Positions 1,810 to 11,596 of a stretch of 12,782 bases of DNA are shown piece by piece. Every line of letters starts with the position of its first letter. The first letter of the stretch is position 1. This DNA comes from Candidatus Helarchaeota ASGARD archaeon Hel_GB_B (GTDB taxonomy: Archaea; Asgardarchaeota; Lokiarchaeia; Helarchaeales; HEL-GB-B). Where the stretch lies: the NCBI GenBank assembly GCA_005191425.1, contig SUPR01000094.1:1-12782 (forward strand), given 5' to 3'. Both the position numbers and the translations under genes were made by a program. The notes below the pieces were generated by a model, which was not told the origin of the DNA, did no database searches, and saw nothing but the letters and a program-made list of their open reading frames with translations.

Positions 1810-2418
1810 TTATGATTTTTTCATTTTCATATAATAATTTAAAACAGCTTCCCTGCAAACCTGTTGAAAGGCTCTTTTTATATTTTGGCCCTTAATTGCT
1901 ATTGTATCATAGATTTGAACCGGCATTTCAATTCCATGGGCGTTCAGTACTTTATCAAGCCCTTTTGATTTTAGAAATTCTAATAATTCTTTTTGGGAAA
2001 TTATGTTTGGTAAGTCTAATTTGTTTAGCATGATTATTAGCGGAATTGATTTTCCTAATTTATCACCTAAATGGCCAATTAATTCTTCCATTGACCAAAC
2101 ATTTTCGTTCCATTGTTCTTTTTGAGCATCCCAGACAAAAATAATGCCATCAACTCCATTTAAAATTGTTTTTCGCTGAAATTTGTGTCTTCTTTGCCCT
2201 GCAACTGTATAGACTTGCATCTTCACACCACCAACTCCAAGAACTGTTCGATCGAAAAATAATGTCCTTCCAGTTGGATCGACAATACTTTGCATTTTTC
2301 CTTCTGCTAAACCTTCCTTATGGAACATCCAGCTAACAGCTGTCGTTTTTCCACCCAGACTAGGGCCCCAATATACTATTTTAAAAACAATCTTGCCGTC
2401 TGCACCTCGAGATGGGAT
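1810..2418 (-). CDS. MglA-like small GTPase (Ras superfamily), about 202 aa; probable ATC start
   Basis: The ORF track starts at 2328, but the frame is open upstream to TGA at 2427-2425 and encodes PSRGADGKIVFKIVYWGPSLGGKTTAVSW. Motifs: G1 GPSLGGKT, switch I GRTLFFD, G3 YTVAGQ, GVDGIIFVWD, G4 NKLD and G5-like TIA. All resemble MglA (RTLFFD, YTVPGQ, GVDGIVFVAD). Confidence 0.9.
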   Translation of the reverse strand: MPSRGADGKIVFKIVYWGPSLGGKTTAVSWMFHKEGLAEGKMQSIVDPTGRTLFFDRTVLGVGGVKMQVYTVAGQRRHKFQRKTILNGVDGIIFVWDAQKEQWNENVWSMEELIGHLGDKLGKSIPLIIMLNKLDLPNIISQKELLEFLKSKGLDKVLNAHGIEMPVQIYDTIAIKGQNIKRAFQQVCREAVLNYYMKMKKS

Positions 2419-6391: not shown

Positions 6392-7480
6392 TTAATAAAA
6401 TTTCTTTTTAATATAATAAGCTGCAAATATTCCGATTAATATGAACAAAATTATCCACCAAATAGATAAATAAAATACTTGACCCGTAGATGTTGCTAAT
6501 GAAAGGAAACCTAGTCCTTCAAGATTTCTTAAAGTTTCAATTGCAAAATATGTACTACTAATTGAAGAGCTCTGACCGTTAGTATTAGTTTTAAAACCTC
6601 CATCTAATAAATTCTGACAATTTTGAACCCAACTTATAACATTTAATTTCAATGGCATGGCATCATTCAAAATATCCAATGAATAAGTGGCAGAATAACA
6701 GTTAATTACTGAAAAATCAAGAGTTTTAGGAGAGCTACTAAAACTTCCATATTTATCAATTTCAAAGCTATTTGTGTTCTGGCAAGACACTATCCAGTTA
6801 TATGCTGAAGTTTTATTAATTTGGTTAATTGATCCTGTCAAATTAAGTGCTTCAAGTGCAAAATACATAGTCAATAAATTATATGTCCCATTTTCTGAAG
6901 AAAATGCCCCATAATTATCTTCAGATTGATTATTTTGTCGCATAATTAGCCACTGGGACGTATTATATTGTCCTAAATTAATATTCAACAAATTTAAAGT
7001 CTCTAAAGCAAAATAGCTACTTAAAATACTTGAGGACTCATTTGGAAAATTACTGAATCCATAATCTGAATTCCAACATTGATTTAACCAAGCTGTTATA
7101 TTATTTTTTGGTTCGAACCCTAGTAGTTTTAATGATTTTACAGCATAATAAGTAGACTCCACTGTTGATGAATCATTCTCAATGTTTGGAAATCCACCAT
7201 CTATATTTTGTGTGCTATTTATCCACGTAGCGATTTTAGTCCGATCAAAAATACTCAATTTACCCAATGTTTTAAGAATAACGATTGCATAATAGGTGCT
7301 CTGCATATCTGGTAAATTATTATCAGGGTATAATGAAAATCCACCTTCTTTTGTATGACAATTGACAATGAAATTCGTTAATAAATCACCTCTTGTTGTT
7401 GTTGTTGTAGATGATAATGGAGTCAATGAAATTGCAAATATAATCAATATTAAACTGAACAATAATTTTCTGTTTTTCAA
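6392..7480 (-). CDS. Secreted, C-terminally membrane-anchored prenyltransferase/squalene-cyclase-repeat (alpha/alpha barrel) protein; TTG start
   Basis: N-terminal signal peptide (MKNRKLLFSLILIIFAISLTPLSS). Six repeats of Q/H/W..G[GAS]F...STY[YF]A-type motifs (e.g. TQNIDGGFP...STYYA, CQNLLDGGFK...STYFA). C-terminal hydrophobic helix plus KKKFY tail. Nine N-x-S/T sequons. Confidence 0.8.
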   Translation of the reverse strand: MKNRKLLFSLILIIFAISLTPLSSTTTTTRGDLLTNFIVNCHTKEGGFSLYPDNNLPDMQSTYYAIVILKTLGKLSIFDRTKIATWINSTQNIDGGFPNIENDSSTVESTYYAVKSLKLLGFEPKNNITAWLNQCWNSDYGFSNFPNESSSILSSYFALETLNLLNINLGQYNTSQWLIMRQNNQSEDNYGAFSSENGTYNLLTMYFALEALNLTGSINQINKTSAYNWIVSCQNTNSFEIDKYGSFSSSPKTLDFSVINCYSATYSLDILNDAMPLKLNVISWVQNCQNLLDGGFKTNTNGQSSSISSTYFAIETLRNLEGLGFLSLATSTGQVFYLSIWWIILFILIGIFAAYYIKKKFY

Positions 7481-7606: not shown

Positions 7607-8854
7607 TTATTCATCATATGAAATTAAGATATTAAGTGGATCTTTACCTGCGCATGCAAATACTAAAATTTCTCCGTTTTGTATATTTAACTCATTAAGA
7701 GTTTTATTTGGGTCTCTTAATCTCTCTACAAAAGGGTTCCAAATAGTCTTTTTGGTCAGTTCAACGGTAATCAAGCAAGAATCGGGGTCGCATTCTCCAA
7801 TTGCAGATGAAACTAGTCCAAACAATGTATCTATGTGCTCATTTTTATTGATAGTTACTTCTATAGTTTCGAACTTTCCACTACCACAATGCAAACAATT
7901 CGGGTCCTTCGCAATATCTATTAATTCAAATATTCCATACACTCCGTTATAATTCAAATATGGCGGACTCATTATAGGACCAATATCTTTACCCTTCAAT
8001 TTGTGCAAGATTTTTAGAATTTCATGAGATTGAATAGCTGCTATAACTGCAGTAACTGTTTGAATTGCGGGCATTTTATTTTTCAAGATATTTTCCATAT
8101 CATCGAATTTAAAATCAGGTTTAAAGTCGAATTTTTTTGCAATTTCATTAGATTTATTTACAAGCCAAATAATATCATCATCATTATCAAAATCCGGAGT
8201 ACGACTGAATCTATTTCCGAATTCATATTCTGCTTTTAGGACACAATGTTCTCGTTTTTTTGGAATACCTTTCGGAGTACAAGCTGCAATCAATTTTTCA
8301 TCTGCTGGAGGGATTGGAAGCAGACATTTTAGACATGGTGTGGATTCAAGACCTTCAATACCTTCAGGAATCACTATATGAACATGTCCTTCAAAACCCA
8401 ATGTACCAGAATCAATCAATGGCTTTTTAAGTCTAATACAGATCTTATTTAAGTCCATTCTTGCTTTAATATTATCTAATCCACCTATTATCAAATCGCA
8501 TTTCTTATATACTTCTAATGGGATCTCTTGTAAAAAGGTAAAATATGTTTCAATATTCATATATGGATTAAATTTTTTTAATTCTCTAGCAGCTACTTCT
8601 GCCTTCGGTTTTCCTTCATCTCCAGGTTTAAATAACATCTGACGAGAAAGATTACTGGTTTCAATTGTATCATTGTCGACCAAGATCATATTACCAATAC
8701 CAACTAGAGCAAGGTTTTTTGCTATTTCACAACCGAGAGCTCCAACACCGATCATAAATACTGTTGAATTTTTAATGATGTCTTGATCCCAGCCTTCCAA
8801 CAAGGAATGTCGTGTATATAATCTTTTTTCTTTAGTTTTTGGAGTTTTGTCCAT
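7607..8854 (-). CDS. Ubiquitin-family activating enzyme E1, eukaryote-like (UBA3/UBA2-type), with catalytic-Cys domain and C-terminal ubiquitin-fold domain
   Basis: Motifs GVGALGCE, DNDTIETSNLSRQMLF and GLDNIKAR; Zn pair CLKC...CLHC; catalytic motif ACTPKGIPKKREHC (compare CT...P...EHC in UBA3/UBA2); PAIQTVTAVIAA; C-terminal TLNELNIQNGEILV. AGGTG at 8865-8861 favours ATG 8854. Confidence 0.9.
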   Translation of the reverse strand: MDKTPKTKEKRLYTRHSLLEGWDQDIIKNSTVFMIGVGALGCEIAKNLALVGIGNMILVDNDTIETSNLSRQMLFKPGDEGKPKAEVAARELKKFNPYMNIETYFTFLQEIPLEVYKKCDLIIGGLDNIKARMDLNKICIRLKKPLIDSGTLGFEGHVHIVIPEGIEGLESTPCLKCLLPIPPADEKLIAACTPKGIPKKREHCVLKAEYEFGNRFSRTPDFDNDDDIIWLVNKSNEIAKKFDFKPDFKFDDMENILKNKMPAIQTVTAVIAAIQSHEILKILHKLKGKDIGPIMSPPYLNYNGVYGIFELIDIAKDPNCLHCGSGKFETIEVTINKNEHIDTLFGLVSSAIGECDPDSCLITVELTKKTIWNPFVERLRDPNKTLNELNIQNGEILVFACAGKDPLNILISYDE

Positions 8855-8966
8855 AATATACACCTAATAAAAAAACAATTTTAATAATATAAATTTATAA
8901 CATTATTATTTCTAGAATATTAAAAAATTGTTAAGTAAAAATGGATTAGTGATTGTTGAAAAATAA

Positions 8967-10256
8967 TTATTCGTTAATATTATCATCATCCGAAGTGTTC
9001 TGGGAGGGTAAATCTGATGTCGCTGTGTCTGATGCATTTGATGGCATATCCGATGTTTCACTAATAGTCTGGGGTGGTGTCCTCAAACAATATGCGCATT
9101 TATTAATTGCTCTTATATTTTGTTCCCAGCAATGTAAATGATATGGTTTCCCACAATAGGGACATTTATAAAAGCACGCTTCAGAACCATCTTGGGGCGA
9201 CAATGATTTTCCACAAGTCGGGCATTCTATTTTATGACAAATAATACAAGATAACACTGATGCGCTAAAAATTGACTTAGAAATTGAGTTAAAAACATCT
9301 ATTAAATAATGAAACGGGTCCCAAACAGCTAATGTGGCTTCAGTAGCGCTTGAAAGTGTTTCAGCTATTTTATCATCTTGAATTTCTGTTTTGAGCGAAA
9401 AAATCGGCTTAGACATTGGATAATCATTTGGAATTTCTACATCAAAGGAAAAGACCATATCACTTGTATTCATTACTCCCTTTAAATCAGCATGAATTTT
9501 CCGCTGTTCTGCGTCATATTGTATATTTTGAAGTCCTCCATACAATAAATCTACTTCAAAATTCATTCTTTCATGTTGATCTATTTTCCATTGAATATCT
9601 CTTAATATATCATTTATTTGATATTCAGGCATCCAATTTTTTATTTTGTCAAAATTATCTGAAGGGCCAATTATTTCTTGTAATTCGGTAGAAAATTTGA
9701 ATTGCGGCGGATTAAATTGCGAGGATAAATAGATATCTAATTTATACTCCTTCCACCCATATGTAATAAATGTAATTAAATAATGATTTCTAGAATCACC
9801 AGCTGGATCAATTTTAAATTCATGGGCAATCTGTTCTGCTTGGGCTTTGTATGTACTAATTTCATAAAGTATTGTTTCTAATTCTCGAACGACATTTAAA
9901 ACTGGTGGTGGATTTGAAGAATCCCAATTTTTTAAAGTGTTTAAAACTTCATTTGGGTCTCCTAGAATATTTTTTACTGATTCTTGTACTGTAATTAGTG
10001 GTTTTTCATTTGGATAAGCAGAAAAATCTATTCCAACTATATAATGTTCAGTTACTGATGCATCTATATAAATTTTAAGCCTAGAAATTATTCCATCAAC
10101 TAATTCAACTTGAAATTCGTTCATAATTTGTTGAGCTTGAGTGGCTAATATTACATCTGAATCATTGTCTATCTCATAACCACTTTCAGTATCTTTTTCT
10201 GGCTCTTCATCTTCATCGATAACCAGTTCATCTTCATCATTATTTTCTTCGGCCAT
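8967..10256 (-). CDS. Putative RING E3 ligase: acidic N-terminus, three tandem inactive E2-like (UEV/RWD) folds and a C4HC3 RING (FANCL-like architecture)
   Basis: Three units of about 95-105 aa share QAqQI..EF / YP..kP or FNPP / W.P...L.dV motifs. There is no Cys before residue 337. C-terminal CPTC...CPYCGKPYHLHC...CAYC. AAGGAGG RBS at 10264-10270. Confidence 0.75.
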   Translation of the reverse strand: MAEENNDEDELVIDEDEEPEKDTESGYEIDNDSDVILATQAQQIMNEFQVELVDGIISRLKIYIDASVTEHYIVGIDFSAYPNEKPLITVQESVKNILGDPNEVLNTLKNWDSSNPPPVLNVVRELETILYEISTYKAQAEQIAHEFKIDPAGDSRNHYLITFITYGWKEYKLDIYLSSQFNPPQFKFSTELQEIIGPSDNFDKIKNWMPEYQINDILRDIQWKIDQHERMNFEVDLLYGGLQNIQYDAEQRKIHADLKGVMNTSDMVFSFDVEIPNDYPMSKPIFSLKTEIQDDKIAETLSSATEATLAVWDPFHYLIDVFNSISKSIFSASVLSCIICHKIECPTCGKSLSPQDGSEACFYKCPYCGKPYHLHCWEQNIRAINKCAYCLRTPPQTISETSDMPSNASDTATSDLPSQNTSDDDNINE

Positions 10257-10306: not shown

Positions 10307-11596
10307 TTAATCAATTTTCTTCAATTTTTTTAAAATAATAGAACGCTGCTCTAATTTTAATAACATGTTTGATTCAACATTCTCCTCAATATTTAAACCT
10401 GCGGAAATAACCGAGTTGCAGCCTATCATTTTACCAGGAAAAATAGATACATTAATACCAATGAATGCATTATCACCAATTATAGCACCAAACTTTTTCA
10501 ATGGCACCTCAAATATCTCGTCCTTAATTTTTACTTTAATTTTTTCCTTATGTGAAATATTCCAGGTCTGAGTACCTGCACCAAATTCTACATTTTTTCC
10601 AATAATACTATCTCCTACGTAGCTTAATCTCCCAATAGATGTGTTATCGAAAATTATGCTATTTTTTATTTCAACACCAAATCCGACAACGCAATTTTTT
10701 CCTATTGTAGAATATTCTCTAACTAGTGCATTAGTCCCTATTATTGCTCCCTCCTGAATCACGCAAGGCCCTTGAATAACTGCCCCCGGTCTAATTATCA
10801 CATTTTTGTCTATATAAACTGGCCCTTCTATTTTTGATATGCTTGAAATTCTAGCCGATTTATCTATAAACGACCCCGATTCAAAAAGGCCTCGAGACAA
10901 TATAAATTGGTTTGCACGTAATAAATCCCATGGATAGGTAATTTCGATCCATTCTTTTTCCCAAACCGATGCATATACATTATTATTTCTATTTATAATT
11001 TCTTGAATTGATAAATCAAGTCTACTTGTTTTTTCTAGATGTTCAAATATCTCATTTCTAAAAATATAAACCCCTGAAACTACATAATTTGACTCACATT
11101 TTTCAGGTTTCTCAACTAACTTGGTAATTCTTGCTTCCGAATCTATTGTCGCTACTCCATATAGATGTGGGTTGTCCACTAACGTTATAGATATAGTTGC
11201 ATCCGCATTCATATTATTATGAGTTTGAATTGTTCTTAAGATCATATCTGGGTCTGAAAAAATATCCGCATGAACAATTATGAATTCTTTTTCGTCTTTT
11301 AGCTCATTTTTTGCAGTTAAAATTGCATTTTCAACATTTGGTTTATCTTGTTCTAAATATTTAATCTTTATACCAAAATTAAATCCATTACCAAAATATT
11401 CTGTAATTTGCTCTTTTTTATAACCCACAACTATTAAAATATCCTTTAAATTGGATTCTTTTAAGCTATTAATAACCCACTCTAAAACTGGCTTACCCGC
11501 TATCTTTATCATTGGCTTAACTGTAGTTTCTGTTATCGGTGTTAATCTACACCCTTTCCCAGCAGCAAGGATAAGTACCTTCATTAAAATTACCAT
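10307..11596 (-). CDS. glmU: Bifunctional sugar-1-phosphate nucleotidylyltransferase / acetyltransferase, GlmU-like (NTP transferase plus left-handed beta-helix)
   Basis: Motifs LILAAGKGCRLTP...KPMI, VGYK, YGVA and VEKP, followed by hexapeptide repeats (IEGPVYIDKNVIIRPGAVIQGPCVIQEGAIIG...SYVGDSIIG...FGAIIGD). The start could also be ATG 11584. Substrate is not established. Confidence 0.8.
   Translation of the reverse strand: MVILMKVLILAAGKGCRLTPITETTVKPMIKIAGKPVLEWVINSLKESNLKDILIVVGYKKEQITEYFGNGFNFGIKIKYLEQDKPNVENAILTAKNELKDEKEFIIVHADIFSDPDMILRTIQTHNNMNADATISITLVDNPHLYGVATIDSEARITKLVEKPEKCESNYVVSGVYIFRNEIFEHLEKTSRLDLSIQEIINRNNNVYASVWEKEWIEITYPWDLLRANQFILSRGLFESGSFIDKSARISSISKIEGPVYIDKNVIIRPGAVIQGPCVIQEGAIIGTNALVREYSTIGKNCVVGFGVEIKNSIIFDNTSIGRLSYVGDSIIGKNVEFGAGTQTWNISHKEKIKVKIKDEIFEVPLKKFGAIIGDNAFIGINVSIFPGKMIGCNSVISAGLNIEENVESNMLLKLEQRSIILKKLKKID

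Follow-up and report, generated by a model that had tools for sequence, protein, structure and literature searches.

Does an Asgard archaeon encode a ubiquitin ligase built like FANCL, and with which other proteins would it work? The question arises from a gene of Candidatus Helarchaeota archaeon Hel_GB_B that lies at positions 8967..10256, on the minus strand, of contig SUPR01000094.1 (assembly GCA_005191425.1). The whole stretch that was analysed, 12,782 nucleotides long, is referred to as the window, and all window features named here lie on the minus strand. FANCL is the ubiquitin ligase (E3) of the Fanconi anaemia core complex and consists of an E2-like fold (ELF), a double RWD domain and a C4HC3 RING/PHD-like finger. 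A sequence-only reading, made from the letters of the window and the translations of its open reading frames (ORFs), had described the product of the gene as FANCL-like: three tandem, catalytically dead folds of the ubiquitin-conjugating enzyme (E2) type, followed by a C4HC3 RING. According to our analysis the protein is probably a RING-type E3 ligase belonging to a ubiquitin-like conjugation cassette of Asgard (Helarchaeales-like) archaea.

The coordinates claimed for the gene coincide with exactly one minus-strand ORF, whose translation (protein P0001) has 429 residues. All motifs quoted in the sequence-only reading were found at most one residue from the places given for them: the opening-helix motifs QAQQIMNEF (residues 40–48), QAEQIAHEF (139–147) and EVDLLYGGL (234–242), the turn motifs YPNEKP (81–86), FNPP (181–184) and IPNDYPMSKP (275–284), and one tryptophan-bearing helix per repeat (110–123, 207–218 and 311–322). 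Inspection of the protein sequence also agreed that there is no HPN motif and no cysteine before residue 337; all ten cysteines are located within residues 337–390. An AlphaFold2 model based on 30 homologues had a mean predicted local-distance difference test score (pLDDT) of 78.8, with blocks of 85–94 across residues 31–260. It shows a helix, a three- to four-stranded meander and further helices, three times over, and then a short zinc domain, the closing helix of one unit continuing into the first helix of the next (helices 119–144 and 214–241). Both tails are disordered. The N-terminal tail (residues 1–30; 10167..10256; pLDDT 35–38) is acidic and varies in length and sequence among homologues, and the C-terminal tail (residues 394–429 and the stop codon; 8967..9077; pLDDT 36–37) is rich in Ser, Thr and Asp and is different or missing in many of them. 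The ORF is thus genuine, and it is conserved.

The first pseudo-E2 (UBC/RWD-like) domain (residues 31–133; 9858..10166) is formed by helix 31–47, four strands and helices that run to residue 144, with a pLDDT of 85–94. It has the YP..P turn at residues 81–86 and the helix with W111, while the catalytic cysteine and the HPN motif are both absent; Y63, P82, P86 and W111 are invariant among homologues. Domain 2 (residues 134–228; 9573..9857; strands 148–187, helix 214–241) is a diverged tandem copy of domain 1, to which it aligned with an E-value of 4e-17 and a probability of 98.9% in hhalign and with 25% identity and an E-value of 2e-4 in BLASTP. Domain 3 (residues 229–335; 9252..9572) has the most canonical UBC/RWD fold, with the PxDYPxxxP turn at 276–284 and W312-x-P, and a helix stands in place of the HPN-Cys loop. 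In profile–profile comparison it matched domain 1 with an E-value of 5e-5 and domain 2 more weakly (E 0.02). Judged by these profiles, domains 1 and 2 are a clear tandem duplication internal to the family, and domain 3 is a more distant unit of the same fold.

Structural comparison of domain 3 by VIA-align gave Z scores of 11–12 and a root-mean-square deviation (rmsd) of 2.2–2.6 Å over about 100 residues to RWD domains (SEA complex subunit, RWDD1, RNF25 and GCN2), to active E2s and to TSG101-UEV. The Pfam models RWD and UQ_con match it weakly in 29–30 of 30 members, and the family profile, when compared with PDB sequences, found E2 structures at an E-value of 2e-5, aligned from the PxDYPxxxP turn to the W-x-P helix. 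Neither the 30 closer homologues nor a 27-member broad alignment has a conserved cysteine in domains 1–3. The three repeats proposed from the sequence are thus borne out by the profile–profile E-values and by the three UBC/RWD folds of the model, and so is their description as catalytically dead, since there is no catalytic cysteine and no HPN motif and the loop of domain 3 is replaced. In relatives of 550–600 residues, one more unit of the domain-1 type precedes the others at the N-terminus (E 1.5e-10). We also noticed the domain-1-type module on its own in many otherwise unannotated proteins of 250–760 residues (E 1e-15 to 1e-21; P0074–P0102 and others), whose partner domains match nothing in Pfam.

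The C-terminal finger (residues 336–393; 9078..9251) is a C4HC3 RING with the ligand pairs C337/C340, C365/C368, H373/C376 and C387/C390, spaced C337-x2-C340...C365-x2-C368-x4-H373-x2-C376-x10-C387-x2-C390. These eight ligands are invariant or near-invariant across 27 divergent members, with identity down to 20%, so the C4HC3 type assigned by the sequence-only reading holds family-wide. Six of the ligands it listed (C365, C368, H373, C376, C387 and C390) were right. The family-wide invariants show that its first pair, C345/C348, was not, the true first pair being C337/C340. In addition, its list left out C337, C340, C361 and H375 and missed a probable third zinc site. Twelve ligand candidates do not vary among the 30 closer homologues (C337, C340, C345, C348, C361, C365, C368, H373, H375, C376, C387 and C390); H341 is nearly invariant there, and R392 is near-invariant in the family. 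Three of the twelve, C345, C348 and C361, are carried by an insert in RING loop 1 (residues 345–361; 9174..9224) and are invariant in these homologues. Together with H375 they probably form a third zinc site, as the conservation pattern suggests, giving 12 ligands in all. The site would be optional in the family: the divergent members P0059, P0064 and P0091 all have no such insert. H375 is replaced in P0059 and P0064, whose finger reads C-x2-C-x11-C-x2-C-x4-H-x2-C-x11-C-x2-C, and in P0091 the H373–C376 segment is rearranged as well. All three keep the RING ligands, except for an uncertain equivalent of C365.

A similar arrangement is found in RBX1 and APC11, which have twelve Cys/His ligands in the same linear order (a colinear HMMER alignment to RBX1 was not significant, E 0.1). 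There too the loop between ligand pairs 1 and 2 gives three ligands and a histidine beside ligand 6 the fourth; the zinc-site assignment for RBX1 is reportedly that of the structure solved by Zheng and colleagues in 2002. In contrast to these proteins, the Asgard core is C4HC3 and not RING-H2, the cullin-binding N-terminal strand is absent and the insert is dispensable in some members. Pfam zf-rbx1 matched one distant member only, under the cut-off (E 0.002).

When the RING was folded alone (64 residues), the model had a pLDDT of 87.7 and matched many RING/U-box structures over its whole length, with Z scores of 5.5–7.6 and an rmsd of 1.4–2.2 Å. The highest scores were obtained with listerin in three cryo-electron microscopy entries of ribosome-associated quality control (RQC) complexes (7.6, 7.5 and 6.7; 22–28% identity), followed by RNF165 (6.7), RBX1 (6.3), APC11 (6.1) and FANCL (4ccg_Y, 5.6). 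The best listerin superposition covered 55 residues and that of FANCL 4ccg_Y 52, each with an rmsd of 2.1 Å and 27% identity. On the model, a RING fold is confirmed, and the comparison does not single out FANCL. A search of PDB sequences with the RING profile returned RBX1, p44 and EL5 only, none of them significant. We also considered two independent zinc ribbons or C2H2-like fingers, suggested by designed zinc fingers as the top PDB profile matches (E 0.003). This reading was rejected because those matches rest on the CPxC...CPxC spacing only, because the RING-only model fits RING/U-box structures over 64 residues and because members without the insert keep the eight-ligand RING.

The whole protein was then compared with known structures. 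In each of the three libraries searched with Foldseek, FANCL scored above every other protein outside the family, colinear over all four domains. Among PDB entries it came top (7kzp_L and 9a0j_L, E 6e-9; 3k1l, 9e-5). In AFDB-SwissProt mouse FANCL was first (E 6e-12; human 2.5e-10), with residues 39–392 of the query aligned to 6–364. Among the 2.3 million AFDB clusters, three archaeal family clusters were followed by 'FA complementation group L' (E 1.6e-9) and then by many FANCL clusters. The runners-up were BRE/BABAM2 (about 1e-7, over the three pseudo-E2 domains) and listerin (about 5e-6, over domain 3 and the RING). The sequence-only reading had named FANCL, BRE, TSG101-UEV and RWD domains as the structures to compare; the AlphaFold model ranked FANCL first and BRE next, and domain 3 also fits TSG101-UEV and RWD. 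The global template-modelling (TM) score against FANCL was only 0.2–0.25, with an rmsd above 20 Å, because the domain orientations differ; the match is one of domain order and folds and not of a rigid body. Language-model features from ESM-Atlas gave a similar ranking. For the whole protein, family clusters (0.94 and 0.93) were followed by FANCL clusters from animals, plants and fungi (0.92, 0.90 and 0.88; 178 and 171 shared features), ahead of RNF25-like RWD-RING proteins (0.87) and listerin (0.86). FANCL was also first for domain 3 with the RING (0.91, 179 features), and for domains 1 and 2 it scored 0.85 and BRE 0.84, values that serve as leads only.

Like FANCL, the protein has three non-catalytic UBC/RWD folds and then a C-terminal C4HC3 RING, the same in number and order, and FANCL and this protein are also alike in length (375 vs about 370 ordered residues). 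The model thus confirms a FANCL-like architecture. There are also differences. The Asgard RING has an extra three-cysteine insert and a histidine, the putative third zinc site, which FANCL is not known to have; the Asgard domains 1 and 2 are recent duplicates of each other, present in two or three copies; and the sequence similarity is not significant at the level of hidden Markov models. Of the Pfam models FANCL_d1, FANCL_d2, FANCL_d3 and FANCL_C, only FANCL_d1 matched, in 4 of 30 members (best E 0.065; 13.7 bits against a cut-off of 23.8), and FANCL_C, searched against all six frames of the genome, did not match the gene at 8967..10256 at E <= 1. Nor did FANCL, BRE or listerin come up significantly when PDB sequences were searched with the whole protein or with the profiles of the family and of the RING.

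Therefore, of the FANCL-like reading, the architecture stood, as did FANCL as the nearest known protein outside the family, whereas the Pfam models of FANCL fail on it and the ancestry is not established. A grouping of the RING with FANCL, on which that reading had staked the relationship beforehand, was not borne out by the structural scores: taken alone, the RING is nearest to listerin (Z 7.6 vs 5.6 for FANCL), the scores differing by only about 2 Z units, and by language-model features domain 3 with the RING is nearest to FANCL. The count of three E2-like folds may be convergent, since domains 1 and 2 were duplicated within the family and their copy number varies. In our view a specific common ancestry with FANCL is plausible rather than demonstrated, its chances lying somewhat below even. 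We give about the same tentative weight to the family being the archaeal sister of eukaryotic FANCL, and perhaps also of a wider pseudo-E2 group with BRE and the listerin RWD-RING.

The genomic surroundings speak for a working E3. Immediately downstream, after a 103-nt gap, lies a gene for an activating enzyme (E1) of the UBA3/UBA1 type (7607..8863; 418 residues; Pfam ThiF 4e-62) with a C-terminal ubiquitin-fold domain region. Its alignment to UBA3, the catalytic subunit of the NEDD8 E1, runs from end to end (residues 30–403 vs 38–418, E 4e-41), and it also aligned with the active adenylation half of UBA1/UBA6 (E 2e-43). On the upstream side, 50 nt away, is a protein with an NTP-transferase domain and a left-handed beta-helix (LbH) (10307..11596; Pfam NTP_transferase 9e-41, Hexapep and LbH_EIF2B), with a fold like that of sugar-phosphate nucleotidylyltransferases, eIF2B-epsilon and GMPPB. 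Four genomes share the order NTP-transferase, E3, E1, with gaps of about 30–150 nt; besides the source genome, the trio is found in three relatives: L001 (81% identity), L002 (= L053, genome G128; E3 46%, E1 65%) and L051 of genome G127 (E3 42%, E1 64%). The gap between the NTP-transferase and E3 genes is 30–50 nt in the window and in G127, and it seems likely that the NTP-transferase is co-transcribed with the E3–E1 pair.

The upstream neighbour and the RING comparison both bear on the idea of a listerin/RNF25-like, ribosome-associated E3, in which the RWD and C4HC3 RING would dock on the ribosome or a translation factor and tag stalled products. Listerin (Ltn1), too, has an RWD fold directly before the RING, and its RWD-RING aligned in Foldseek to residues about 190–395. 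It supplies the closest structures for the RING alone, and domain 3 with the RING is structurally nearest to clusters of the listerin and RNF25 type (TM 0.52–0.66); in addition, the conserved upstream neighbour has an eIF2B-epsilon-like NTP-transferase/LbH fold. That enzyme is, however, more simply a sugar nucleotidyltransferase, the RING Z scores differ within about 2 units, and FANCL outranks listerin by features. Listerin has about 1,500–1,800 residues, mostly HEAT repeats, and a single RWD, whereas in the Asgard protein three UBC-like folds, a RING and two disordered tails take up all 429 residues, leaving no HEAT or other listerin region. We therefore find this explanation very improbable, the least favoured of those weighed here.

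The likely partner E2 of the RING-type E3 is found elsewhere in the source genome. An E2 of 169 residues with HPN and cysteine lies beside a short MPN+ JAMM protein (147 residues, HSHP) on contig C17 (60–1905, L005). It is 91% identical to the E2 of L001, which lies 7 kb from the E3 gene, 71% identical to that of G127, and 60–95% identical across Asgard archaea labelled Hel, Loki or Hod. In G127 the E3 and E1 genes are followed by one for an active-type E2 of 172 residues (HPN and cysteine) and, after it, one for an MPN+ JAMM protein with a long coiled-coil tail. This locus (L051, G127:C6, 8032–16368) is a ubiquitin-system island that also holds a second short ThiF gene on the opposite strand and a von Willebrand factor A (vWA) protein. 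Among solved E2s, the linked E2 scored best with UBE2T, both as a single sequence (69.3 bits) and as a profile (82.8 bits), where UBE2K (82.3) and UBE2D2 (79.6) were effectively tied with it. Placing it in a eukaryotic subfamily thus ended in a tie of UBE2T with UBE2K and UBE2D.

A UBE2T-like E2 would be expected if the protein were a true archaeal homologue of FANCL, active in site-specific mono-modification of a DNA-repair protein or replication clamp. FANCL leads every structure library and is colinear over four domains, language-model features rank it first (0.92 for the whole protein, 0.91 for domain 3 and the RING), the RING is C4HC3 as in FANCL and UBE2T is the top solved E2 by single sequence and by profile. 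Yet UBE2T is ahead of UBE2K and UBE2D by under 1–3 bits, effectively a tie, and the neighbouring genes are not repair genes. The Pfam FANCL models did no better than an E-value of 0.065 in 4 of 30 members, the RING alone had a Z score of 5.6 to FANCL and 7.6 to listerin, and domains 1 and 2 are a family-internal duplication with varying copy number. Of the substrates FANCD2 and FANCI and the partners FANCB and FAAP100, the search covered FancD2 (PF14631), which had no match in the 93.7%-complete genome, although its control matched nowhere, so that the power of this search is undemonstrated and its result uninformative. Such a FANCL-type role in genome maintenance thus appears unlikely.

The JAMM protein of the cassette brings to mind BRE/BABAM2, a scaffold of the BRISC and BRCA1-A complexes that is made of UEV-like folds. 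By analogy, the protein could be a non-catalytic scaffold: its array of pseudo-E2 folds would hold a JAMM deubiquitinase complex together or bind chains of a ubiquitin-like protein, with the zinc domain only as an interaction module. BRE shares the tandem dead E2-like folds and ranks second among the structural matches (E 1e-7 to 5e-8, residues 33–310). Its Pfam model matched 9 of 30 members weakly, below the cut-off (best E 0.0013), its feature score for domains 1 and 2 (0.84) is level with that of FANCL (0.85), and the MPN+ JAMM protein with its long coiled-coil tail in the G127 cassette has the BRCC36/Abraxas layout. BRE, however, is no ligase and lacks a RING. In the Asgard family no residues are better conserved than the eight RING ligands, which argues against a scaffold of this kind; moreover, the same RING is also found on leucine-rich repeat (LRR) and beta-helix recognition domains, and the gene is tied to an E1 and an active-type E2 and not to JAMM alone. 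We regard a BRE-type scaffold as improbable, about to the same degree as the genome-maintenance role.

In the source genome the cassette of the E3 looks like a second cascade, because the genome has another E1, E2 and ubiquitin, encoded apart from it in an ESCRT–ubiquitin cluster of the kind typical of Asgards. That cluster, on contig C128 (L018 4588–14134), encodes an EAP30/Vps22/36-like protein, Vps28, UEV-Vps23, an 82-residue ubiquitin, a 150-residue E2 and a 429-residue ThiF–ubiquitin fusion E1. Small RING E3s have been described in archaeal ubiquitin operons, in Caldiarchaeum (PMC5654768) and, as a different, small RING E3, in the ESCRT–ubiquitin operon of Helarchaeia (bioRxiv 10.1101/2023.07.25.550441). 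They resemble the present protein in being archaeal RING E3s linked to eukaryote-like E1 and E2 genes, whereas they are short and lie inside the ubiquitin/ESCRT cluster; the present one has three pseudo-E2 domains and belongs to a separate cassette with a UBA3-like E1. We also noticed, on contig C90 (L010 1450–1704, plus strand) and unlinked to the cassette, an 84-residue beta-grasp ubiquitin-like protein ending in GG-S. It is 88–90% identical across the order, compared with 42–48% for the E3 and 64% for the E1, and is a candidate for the modifier of the second cascade.

Taken together, we infer that the protein is built and works like FANCL, with the same domain order, and acts as a ligase. 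In the mechanism that we favour, the UBA3-like E1 encoded immediately downstream of the E3 gene would load the E2, most likely the conserved 169-residue HPN-Cys enzyme of contig C17, whose counterpart in a relative directly follows the E1. The C4HC3 RING would dock the charged E2, and the RBX1-style third zinc site would stiffen RING loop 1. The three dead E2-like folds, linked by helices, would form a rigid platform that holds substrate and/or modifier, a role modelled on the ELF and double RWD of FANCL and the UEV domains of BRE. They may bind substrate, as the sequence-only reading had supposed, and the JAMM protease of the cassette would mature or remove the modifier. The RING has conserved hydrophobic residues in I339 (two residues after the first ligand), W377 (after ligand 6) and Y389 (two residues after the seventh), whose places we take to be the usual E2-contact positions, going by established RING–E2 structures.

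Several observations weigh against this proposal. W377 is not kept in those members that diverge most, and the residue right after the last cysteine is a leucine, the conserved arginine being one residue further on; the position directly after the last RING cysteine is the usual 'linchpin'. Arrays of RWD and UEV domains often serve as scaffolds without catalytic activity; BRE, kinetochore proteins and Mediator are examples. An adjacent E1 is absent in two same-order genomes (L019 and L054) and at 28 examined loci of the four-domain forms, and no modifier gene was found in the cassette.

We also looked at the distribution of the family. The first homologue search returned 31 proteins at E <= 1e-3. 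When 1.84 billion cluster representatives were searched with a profile, 178 passed the same threshold, 33 of them at E <= 1e-30. Four groups could be distinguished among the 178: full-length three- and four-domain proteins, divergent proteins of 350–370 residues, and many proteins with the domain-1 module only or with the RING only. The closest homologues (69–81% identity) are labelled Helarchaeota, Lokiarchaeota or Promethearchaeota, and the named matches are all Asgard; there were no eukaryotes among the homologues, and a second search with a broader alignment added no new lineage. Of 400 genomes from the phylum, 241 had some match. Matches over the full length (E below about 1e-70) occur only in families that belong to the class of the source genome, other classes of the phylum giving single-domain scores only, of 1e-6 to 1e-16. 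The source genome has a second full-length paralogue of 367 residues (contig C152 14060–15154; L049 6058–7161, minus strand), 27% identical (E 2e-49). It adjoins a 365-residue protein (L049 4853–5950, minus strand) with zinc ribbons, zf-RING_2 and a Prok-RING_1-type finger.

Relatives are annotated automatically as 'RWD domain-containing protein', 'RING-type domain-containing protein' or 'ubiquitin-protein ligase', and full-text literature searches on Asgard or archaea with FANCL, RWD and RING found no description of the family. Tromer et al. (2019; PMC6601020) mentioned one Asgard sequence of the RWD type, basal to the RWDs of eukaryotes, and counted FANCL among the atypical RWDs. The family described here is widespread in Loki/Hel-type Asgards and is a new Asgard family of pseudo-E2 and RING proteins in a second ubiquitin-like cassette.

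In addition, a RING of the same type ends the beta-helix (NosD-like) proteins P0097, P0103, P0108 and P0117 and the LRR protein P0138, with E-values of 1e-13 to 1e-17 to positions about 338–402 of the family profile, and the vWA protein of the G127 island has two RING-like fingers of this type. A recognition domain joined to a RING is the classic layout of an E3, and from these profile matches the RING appears to be a mobile, reusable E3 module in Asgards.

Two other genes of the window were noted. The product of 6392..7480, a gene that lies downstream of the E1 gene in L001 too, has prenyltransferase alpha-alpha-toroid repeats, an N-terminal hydrophobic segment and a C-terminal transmembrane helix. 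A small Arf/Rag-like GTPase is encoded at 1810..2328; its Pfam match begins only at about profile position 44, and its G1/P-loop part therefore seems to precede the first start codon listed. Neither tRNAs nor other RNA features were found in the window.

The archaeal E3s that we found described in the searchable literature are only the small RING proteins of ubiquitin/ESCRT operons, whereas the present family is multi-domain and widespread. Eukaryotes use this layout for site-specific ligases and scaffolds, namely FANCL, BRE and the listerin RWD-RING, and the family is linked to a second cascade, that of a UBA3-like E1. If the family is a sister of FANCL, E3s of the FANCL type that are targeted by dead E2 folds would predate eukaryotes and would have been part of an Asgard E1-E2-E3-JAMM cassette apart from the ESCRT-linked ubiquitin operon. 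Homology with FANCL would likewise mean that a ligase architecture of eukaryotic genome maintenance, and non-catalytic E2/RWD domains in general, first arose in archaea. Even if the likeness is convergent, the family would show that pseudo-E2 domains already served as modular binding units in Asgards and that a putative three-zinc RING was already being shuffled among recognition domains (LRR, beta-helix and vWA), and it offers a compact system, expressible in bacteria, in which to study how a RING is directed by dead E2 folds.

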